From contig JAPDKB010000002.1 of the NCBI GenBank assembly GCA_029258795.1, positions 160,001 through 224,000 on the forward strand: DNA of 64,000 nucleotides, given 5' to 3'. Below the pieces are notes generated by a model. The model saw only the letters and a list, made by a program, of their open reading frames with translations, did not search any database and was not told the origin of the DNA. A program made the translations under genes and the position numbers. Numbering within the stretch: the first letter of the stretch is position 1; each line of letters opens with the position of its first letter. The stretch is from an archaeon. Lineage in GTDB: Archaea > EX4484-52 > WAPT01. This document shows positions 16,574 through 30,845 of the stretch, one piece after another.

Positions 16574-16773
16574 TGGTGCCGAGGGGGGGATTTCCTGCCA
16601 CCAGAGCAGGAAGCGCGACGAAGCTTTGCTTCGGCGGCGTTCGAACCCCCGACCTCCAGATTTCTCAGCGCCGTAACACAAAATCATCGCTTGCTCATTA
16701 CTCGGCAAACTCATCACTCATAAGCCAACACGGCTTATGAGTCTGGCGCTCTAACCAGCTGAGCTACCTCGGC
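16574..16773 (-). tRNA. tRNA-Met (CAT), probably elongator, with two introns (37/38: 16662-16735; 59/60: 16591-16639); CCA encoded
   Basis: GCCGAGG/CCTCGGC acceptor stem, anticodon stem CCAGA/TCTGG, T-stem GGGGG/CCCCC; BHB (CTCA/TGAG) at 37/38 and a relaxed BHB in the T-loop. Confidence 0.93.
16662..16735 (-). ncRNA. 74-nt tRNA-Met intron carrying a putative C'/D' K-turn guide for C34
   Basis: GGCUUAUGAGU is the reverse complement of ACUCAUAAGCC. It is followed by D'-like AUGA, stem GUUUGC/GCAAGC, a 3-nt bulge and GAUU; CUGA lies near the 3' end. Confidence 0.6.
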
Positions 16774-30491: not shown

Positions 30492-30554
30492 GATTTTATG
30501 GTTGACCCTTCAAAACTATTTTAAGATTTCGGTGGTATAATATAGCTACACCAC

Positions 30555-30681
30555 GCGGGGGTCGCCTAGCCTGGTTTGGCGTGGGACTGCAGATCCCATT
30601 TACCCGGGTTCGAATGCTGCGGAAGCAAAACTTCCTTGCATTTCCAGCTGTCCGCAGCTGAAAATCCCGGCCCCCGCTCCA
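30555..30681 (+). tRNA. tRNA-Cys (GCA) with 50-nt T-loop intron (30615-30664); CCA encoded
   Basis: GCGGGGG/CCCCCGC acceptor, U73 discriminator, TGGGA-CT-GCA-GA-TCCCA, T-stem CCGGG/CCCGG, BHB TTCG/TGAA with AAT bulges. Confidence 0.92.
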
Positions 30682-30845
30682 GAAAGATTTTTCTTTTGGC
30701 TCTAATACCCAAAAATGAAGAAAAAGAGGAGGTGTTACTTCCTCTTCTTGTGTCTCATTTTCTTCCTTCTTTTCTTCAGTTTGTGTTTCCTTATTTTTGC
30801 ACGCTTCCTTTTCTTTCCCGATGGCATTCCATGCACCCTGAAATC

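Follow-up and report, generated by a model that had tools for sequence, protein, structure and literature searches.

The tRNA-Cys(GCA) gene in the window, by which we mean the whole 64-kb stretch of DNA analyzed here, is interrupted in its T-loop by a 50-nt intron at tRNA position 59/60, and a paralogous intron of 49 nt occupies the same site in a tRNA-Met(CAT) gene on the opposite strand. The genes and elements considered are listed below, where fold A denotes the splicing fold of the intron and fold B denotes a second, alternative pairing of the same nucleotides.

30555..30681, plus strand: interrupted tRNA-Cys(GCA) gene, with its 5' exon at 30555-30614, intron at 30615-30664 and 3' exon, with encoded CCA, at 30665-30681
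30615..30664, plus strand: 50-nt BHB-type intron in the T-loop, tRNA-Cys position 59/60, placed by sequence and by covariance model R1
30609..30612, plus strand: T-loop nucleotides 54-57, the 5' strand of the 4-bp central BHB helix, pairing with 30659-30662
30616..30622, plus strand: 5' strand of H3, the intron-side BHB helix of fold A, pairing with 30652-30658
30652..30658, plus strand: 3' strand of H3; fold B shares the final two bases
30621..30635, plus strand: hairpin 1, intron positions 7-21, with a 5-bp stem and 5-nt loop; present in the circular minimum-free-energy fold
30638..30648, plus strand: 11-mer in the intron interior (positions 24-34) that can pair with the joined ends of the intron; central element of fold B
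30657..30664, plus strand: 3' tail of the intron, its last 8 nt; T-loop pairing and 3' bulge in fold A, pairing with 30641-30648 in fold B
16574..16773, minus strand: tRNA-Met(CAT) gene with two introns, one in the anticodon loop (16662-16735) and one in the T-loop (16591-16639)
16591..16639, minus strand: tRNA-Met T-loop intron of 49 nt, paralogous to that of tRNA-Cys and likewise inserted at position 59/60, placed by sequence and by R1

Neither ARAGORN nor Rfam at its gathering threshold called any tRNA on the raw 64-kb window; a sub-threshold Rfam tRNA match covered 16627-16773, within the tRNA-Met gene. Once 30615-30664 was taken out in silico, ARAGORN called a 77-nt tRNA-Cys(gca) including the CCA, and excision of 16591-16639 from the minus strand likewise yielded a tRNA-Met(CAT) call, still carrying its 74-nt anticodon-loop intron. 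A C/D-like element sits in this anticodon-loop intron, outside both T-loop introns. The covariance model R1, which describes the T-stem plus the BHB and was built from ten copies in the same genome, scored the Cys intron at 72.3 bits and the Met T-loop intron at 58.7 bits, both of which are among its own seeds.

The Cys intron presents a strict hBHBh' motif, in which the T-stem forms the outer helix, nucleotides 54-57 pair with intron positions 45-48 in the central helix, and intron positions 2-8 pair with 38-44 to form H3, with two 3-nt bulges on opposite strands and a splice site in each. In the Met intron, the motif is slightly relaxed by a G57-A45 mismatch in the central helix, as the earlier sequence-only reading of this DNA had noted. 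Judged by its sequence, 30615-30664 is an archaeal protein-spliced (BHB) tRNA intron at position 59/60. The genome encodes the corresponding machinery: one EndA catalytic-domain ORF of 197 aa (PF01974 at 90.6 bits) as the splicing endonuclease, and one RtcB ligase (PF01139 at 582 bits). No Rfam family was detected at 30500-30750, where the only signal was a miRNA model on the opposite strand (18.6 bits, E = 0.31), and the Rfam search found no embedded cargo such as a C/D-box guide in the Cys intron. A C/D-box or k-turn reading of the 3' tail of the Cys intron was rejected, as the tail has no C box and no Rfam support.

The intron family and its recent spread

Genome-wide ARAGORN returned only 27 tRNAs, some of them spurious, and blastn-short with the Cys and Met introns returned partial family matches only; the family was located by pattern scans and R1. 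Across the 1.17-Mb, 96.3%-complete genome, R1 gave 26 matches, 23 of them at E <= 0.00103, with the ten seeds among the matches by construction. At least ten introns of one sequence family lie at the same site, in the tRNA genes for Cys, Met, Pro (two), Gly, Glu, Val and Gln and in two unassigned tRNA genes, and the alignment of the ten genes (A1) had a mean column identity of 70%.

Among 41 genomes of the order, this one included, 25 had an R1 match at E <= 0.01; the order and the class are sampled by the same 42 genomes. In that 41-genome search, the two other genomes of the same genus had 5 and 6 matches, compared with 20 in the present genome. In the Cys and Met orthologues of both relatives, the exon matches abut and the T-loop intron is absent. 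The Met orthologues of these two genomes retain the anticodon-loop intron. Because the T-loop introns are missing from the orthologues in both sister genomes, the Cys and Met introns look like recent gains, and parallel losses in the sister genomes were judged less likely. The Cys intron is thus a member of a sequence family that appears to have colonized many tRNA T-loops of this genome only recently. When metagenomes were scanned with an 18-base pattern from the 5' side, 67 loci came up; just 3 of them matched R1, weakly (21 bits) and in our judgment by chance, and no homologues were gained from the scan.

Two exclusive pairings within one intron

The sequence-only reading had proposed that the T-loop introns are bistable, with covariation in favor of both a splicing fold and a rod-like fold. 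Its splicing helix, columns 2-7 with 39-44, was recovered as a perfect 6-bp helix in Cys (7 bp with 8/38) and as 6 bp including one G-U in Met. In A3, a MAFFT alignment covering 20 members of the family in 6 genomes, 96.6% of 320 BHB cells were paired, compared with 38-56% in slid controls, and none of 500 column shuffles reached this value. The central helix was paired in 97.5% of cells and H3 in 93.6%, with six of the seven H3 pairs changed on both sides; across the 20 sequences, the covariation in the BHB was located in the T-stem and H3. In the 11-member subset described below, H3 remained 91.9% paired, again with two-sided change at 6 of 7 pairs. Fold A, on this comparative evidence, is the functional splicing fold and is clearly supported by covariation.

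The rod-like fold could likewise be traced in both introns of the window. Cys and Met both have every pair of 1-3/24-26 and 7-11/17-21, and helix 28-34/43-49 (hairpin 2) forms 6 of 7 pairs in Cys, interrupted by a C30-A47 mismatch, and all 7 in Met. The compensatory changes that the sequence-only reading had listed at 4/42, 1/26 and 32/45, together with the triple change at 7/21/39, were all found in the sequence. An additional pair beyond that reading joins columns 27 and 50 in Cys, so that 10 of the 11 bases in the internal 11-mer (30638-30648) can pair with the joined ends, namely the last 8 and the first 3 intron nucleotides; the Met intron also scores 10/11. Among 2000 shuffles of the interior, a complement of this quality had p = 0.0035 for Cys and p = 0.0030 for Met. 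Thus, the existence of two mutually exclusive pairings in the Cys and Met introns is supported. Hairpin 2 of Cys consists mostly of two copies of one palindromic hexamer; that of Met contains no palindromic repeat and still forms its 7/7 pairs.

An internal complement to the joined ends was also sought beyond the window by an alignment-free junction test. The 100 model matches comprised 88 unique sequences, and the test covered the 66 introns among these that reach 36 nt; the other 22 of the 88, shorter than 36 nt, include the 33-nt tRNA-Met T-loop introns of genus g3. Sixteen of the 66 introns had p < 0.05 and seven had p < 0.01, where chance would give about 3.3 and 0.7. When the introns were clustered at 80% identity, 8 of 37 clusters had a median p < 0.05 (binomial 4e-4); with single linkage at 70% and 60%, the numbers were 1 of 25 and 0 of 8, and the enrichment was gone, the linkage lumping nearly all introns together. 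Within the close family, the complement is absent from 9 of 20 members (GlyTCC, GluTTC, Val, L015, L018, Leu, L023, L060, and L061; p 0.48-0.995), which indicates that fold B is unnecessary for splicing or for the retention of an intron at 59/60.

In the unselected 20-member alignment, 70.2% of 215 fold B cells were paired (slid controls, 23-51%), a value reached in 15 of 500 column shuffles. The covariation score of fold B in this alignment, 0.203 against 0.161, was reached in 5 of 500 shuffles, and the number of pairs with two-sided change in 55 of 500. An alignment restricted to the fold-B-capable introns (A4), 11 sequences from 6 genomes in 4 genera (g1, g4, g11, and g13) that were selected post hoc with the motif already seen, had 88.2% of 119 fold B cells paired, compared with 25-52% in slid controls. 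Five of its 11 pairs were changed on both sides, in 9 cells, a number reached by 1 of 500 shuffles, a comparison in which kinship can let sequences outdo every shuffle even where no structure exists. The compensatory change at 1/26 occurs in Met and, independently, in L047, and the complement to the junction is kept with different letters across the four genera. G-U pairs account for 9 of the 119 cells, which fits pairing on the sense strand. Stem variants of hairpin 1 are visible in relatives in this alignment; no formal count of them was made. By 2x2 reasoning on the A4 counts, none of the fold B pairs is individually significant, and the covariation of fold B in these aligned introns is suggestive, not proven.

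Extension to more homologues therefore bore out the earlier proposal in part. Two exclusive pairings do exist, with the one of fold B present in 11 introns of 6 genomes, and its pairing is high in that post hoc set; it falls to the lower figure in the unselected 20, of which nine lack fold B.

Predicted folds of precursor, linear intron and circle

The energies given here are predictions of the ViennaRNA nearest-neighbor model, in which the two folds are close: context and temperature move their difference between -4.2 and +6.3 kcal/mol. With the Cys intron linear, the model at 37°C puts fold A at -17.2 and fold B at -15.1 kcal/mol. For the circular intron at the same temperature, the values are -16.3 for fold B vs -12.1 kcal/mol for fold A in Cys, and -19.1 vs -15.0 kcal/mol in Met, putting fold B ahead by 4.2 and 4.1 kcal/mol, respectively. 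In the T-arm context, the energy of fold B minus that of fold A is +3.1 to +6.3 kcal/mol in Cys; in Met, the same difference is -1.2 to +0.2 kcal/mol. When the whole pre-tRNA-Cys was folded, fold B pairs had a probability of at least 0.93 at 37°C, and H3 was dominant at 60°C and above, with a probability of 0.55-0.80.

In the circular Cys intron, the fold B pairs had a predicted probability of at least 0.9 from 37 to 60°C, and the two folds were about equal at 75°C. None of 400 interior shuffles of this circle gave an H3 probability as low as that of the real sequence. For the circular Met intron, 2.25% of 400 shuffles at 37°C and 7.25% at 60°C gave up H3 as the real sequence does, and in the linear Met intron H3 was abandoned in 11.5-19% of interior shuffles. 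As circles at 60°C, only Cys, Met and L039 were predicted to leave H3 (probability of H3, 0.08, 0.04, and 0.11); ProTGG (0.47), L037 (0.62), L047 (0.70), and L036 (0.73) were intermediate, and most members held H3 at a probability of about 0.9-1.0, including the motif-bearing GlyCCC (0.90), L038 (0.96), L063 (0.89), and ProCGG (1.0).

The sequence-only reading had expected the circularized intron to close into a rod with its ligation junction buried in a helix and had proposed circular folding at high temperature. This rod was indeed predicted for Cys and Met at 37°C, but neither fold was predicted to be stable at 75°C, where the circular fold energies lay near or above zero (Cys, +1.86; Met, -0.85). 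The GC content of the tRNA, 67.5% compared with about 45% for the genome, is compatible with a thermophilic host, and for that reason the stability of a bare 50-nt rod is doubtful; if the host is a thermophile, the model suggests that such a rod may not exist. A viroid-like rod RNA was also considered and rejected: the intron is 50 nt long and gene-encoded, with no match to a ribozyme family, and the likeness is in shape only.

Readings of the second fold

With moderate confidence, resting on the comparative and modeled evidence together, we regard fold B as a real, conserved feature of one subfamily, not of all T-loop introns, which would most likely serve as the resting state of the excised intron. 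In the precursor, the splicing fold would prevail, as sequence and covariation support: the T-stem forms the outer helix, nucleotides 54-57 are paired with the 3' tail of the intron, and H3 closes the intron. The 11-mer would be single-stranded in this fold, beside hairpin 1. Upon cutting by the endonuclease, the 3' tail would quit the T-loop and H3 would give way, and the freed 11-mer could then pair with the last 8 and first 3 nucleotides, bringing the ends side by side in one helix. Ligation by RtcB would finally yield a small rod-shaped circle with its junction inside that helix. The benefit of fold B may lie with the cell, through release of the T-loop or clean joining of the ends, or with the intron, through its persistence.

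Metazoan tricRNAs are circular excised tRNA introns. Excision by EndA and joining by RtcB would be expected to circularize the present intron in the same way, and some known circles are stable. Circular excised archaeal tRNA introns have been documented from the tRNA-Trp genes of Sulfolobus and Haloferax, mostly as unstable products (Danan et al. 2012, PMC3326292). Whereas the known stable circles persist through cargo such as C/D-box RNA, the putative stabilizer of the present intron would be a helix across the ligation junction.

The most serious competitor, which we nevertheless consider unlikely, is that fold B is a by-product of ancestry without selection, the 11-mer being a relic that has had too little time to decay in the new copies. 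Such a relic may be an inverted or bulge-less copy of the T-loop and 5'-splice-site region, and the 11-mer does seem to resemble T-loop nucleotides 54-57 joined directly to intron bases 2-3; alternatively, it may be an outcome of the palindromic hexamer repeat that makes up most of Cys hairpin 2. The apparent recency of the Cys and Met introns, the good BHB of the nine members without a complement, the weak whole-family support in column shuffles (15/500 for the percentage paired), and the loss of enrichment under looser clustering all fit this explanation. What speaks against it is that the complement has been retained with different letters in otherwise strongly diverged introns of four genera, that 5 of 11 pairs show two-sided changes, among them the one at 1/26 that arose twice, that no part of the intron interior is better conserved than the motif in the 11-member alignment, and that Met hairpin 2 pairs fully without any palindromic repeat. 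Pure coincidence, short GC-rich RNAs often having alternative folds and covariation in two sequences being fortuitous, is very improbable. The frequency with which shuffled Met introns also give up its weaker H3 and the insignificance of the fold B pairs taken one by one are what a chance origin would predict, but the p values of about 0.003 in each of Cys and Met, the failure of all 400 shuffles to equal Cys, and the return of the same register in 16 of 66 introns argue otherwise.

Two further explanations place the function of fold B elsewhere than in the resting state of the excised intron. Fold B may work in the precursor, where early hairpins would hold the intron ends and free nucleotides 54-59, giving a native-like L-shape for end processing or modification, until a later switch to the BHB permits or gates splicing. 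We rate this as improbable, and below the ancestral relic. The near-equality of the two Met folds in the T-arm context and the dominance of fold B pairs in the whole pre-tRNA-Cys at 37°C are in its favor, the closed T-stem is compatible with the fold B helices, and the order of elements in the gene suggests that the local hairpins of fold B would already have been transcribed while the 3' strand of H3 is still unfinished. On the other side, the BHB of Cys is favored by 3.1-6.3 kcal/mol in the T-arm context, H3 dominates the precursor ensemble from 60°C up, and many T-loop introns of the same genome do without such a device; the change at 1/26 fits pairing with the intron's own 5' end and fails to separate precursor from product. 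We think it very unlikely that the rod circle is a mobility intermediate that re-enters tRNA T-loops by a reversed endonuclease and ligase reaction and is then fixed in DNA. Such an intermediate would explain the burst at 59/60, with one family at the same site in at least ten different tRNA genes and 20 matches against 5-6 in the sister genomes, and the circle is predicted to favor the rod in both of the introns that appear newly gained. How archaeal tRNA introns transpose is described as unknown in the portion of the review consulted (PMC4090602), which, however, supposes a DNA-level process. A search of the 96.3%-complete genome for an RVT_1 reverse transcriptase domain came back empty, which weakens an RNA-to-DNA route, and retro-mobility was dropped after being weighed; IS200/IS605-like single-stranded DNA transposition, with guide pairing to the ends, was ruled out, as no Y1 transposase was found in this genome or its two same-genus relatives. 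In addition, the GlyTCC, GluTTC, Val and two Leu introns have spread without fold B, and the folding model gives an unstable rod at 75°C. The boldest version, that the T-loop introns are selfish RNAs whose internal splint closes the excised intron into a nuclease-resistant rod circle, a vehicle for invading other T-loops via the reversed action of endonuclease and ligase, is scarcely more credible; if true, it would offer the first mechanistic handle on archaeal tRNA-intron transposition.

The preferred reading, a resting state of the excised intron, concerns an intron whose class is familiar. A non-canonical BHB intron at 59/60 is known in pre-tRNA-Cys(GCA) of Candidatus Micrarchaeum acidiphilum ARMAN-2 and, as far as the excerpted description goes, shares with ours the tRNA species, the insertion point in the T-loop, and the protein-spliced BHB class (Fujishima et al. 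2011, PMC3239211). In the same excerpt, the ARMAN-2 intron is 13 nt long with a relaxed hBH motif, whereas the present one has 50 nt, a strict hBHBh' motif, and an interior that allows a second fold; the description, in that part, mentions no alternative fold. Transposed tRNA-intron families have been described in Thermoproteales (Fujishima, Sugahara, Tomita, Kanai 2010, as described in PMC4090602 and bioRxiv 10.64898/2026.10.13.758758). According to these partial accounts, they resemble the present family in having near-identical introns in tRNAs of different identity, recent gain relative to close relatives, and ends constrained by the BHB. The present family, in contrast, belongs to a different lineage, a small-genome archaeal order, and is concentrated at the single site 59/60, and an end-pairing internal segment is not part of the Thermoproteales families as the citing texts describe them. 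The intron also has a likeness to bistable RNAs and switches, with exclusive helices that share a strand, are nearly isoenergetic in models, and each show some covariation, but the only trigger proposed here is cleavage and ligation, and support for the second state comes from a subfamily and from computation.

In a limited full-text search of open-access papers, none was found that ascribes an alternative, end-pairing or rod-like fold to an archaeal tRNA intron. Introns at 59/60, shared intron families, and circular excised introns are already known, and conserved pairing of one internal segment with the two ends of the intron is unreported in the literature searched. On these findings, the intron is a typical representative of a known class, with a second fold that is moderately supported and, in that literature, unreported. 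Should the 11-mer be only a relic of ancestry, the finding would shrink to another documented case of recent intron spread. If the end-pairing segment is real, the interior of the intron would not be free filler but would encode the structure of the product state, and the 11-nt element would provide a concrete, mutable handle on the bearing of the excised intron's fate, its circularization and persistence, on tRNA maturation or intron spread, on the return to the tRNA of a T-loop that has to unfold for splicing, and on the timing of splicing.

Introns of tRNA-Met within and beyond the genus

Window 16662-16735, (-): 74-nt anticodon-loop intron of tRNA-Met(CAT)
L040, L041, L043, L044, L045, L049, L052: 33-nt introns at T-loop site 59/60 of tRNA-Met, genus g3

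The anticodon-loop intron of the window tRNA-Met was retained in the orthologues of both same-genus sister genomes (G001 and G002), and a diverged form was present in tRNA-Met genes of genus g3, which belongs to a different family. C/D-box-like motifs were observed within this intron, and its Rfam match to sR11, an archaeal C/D sRNA family, was sub-threshold, scoring 23.9 bits where the gathering score is 39. Seven g3 genomes carried a 33-nt intron at 59/60 of tRNA-Met, with compensatory changes in the intron-side helix (H3) that distinguished the copies; thus, a distant family has this tRNA-Met site filled, whereas the sister species of the window genome lack an intron there.

Splicing endonuclease

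L120:1216-1809 (contig C6): splicing-endonuclease catalytic-domain ORF, 197 aa

This was the single ORF for such a domain detected across the window's own genome (G000), which is intron-rich.

T-loop introns of other tRNA genes

L021:1501-1564 (C3) and L022:1501-1564 (C5): T-loop introns, two G000 tRNA-Leu genes
L016:1501-1562 (C5) and L015:1501-1562 (C3): T-loop introns, G000 tRNA-Val(GAC) and sibling
L023:1501-1559 (G000) and L036:1501-1565 (G002): T-loop introns, tRNA-Glu(CTC)

Two different tRNA-Leu genes shared an identical 47-nt T-loop intron, and one of them had an additional anticodon-loop intron with C/D-box-like motifs. The tRNA-Val(GAC) intron and its sibling each appeared to comprise a tandem pair of ~22-nt units, with unit starts resembling the intron 5′ end and unit finishes the 3′ end, an arrangement like that expected from head-to-tail duplication of a short intron. 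At the shared 59/60 site of tRNA-Glu(CTC), the intron sequences of G000 and G002 were unrelated, suggesting intron replacement or independent gain.
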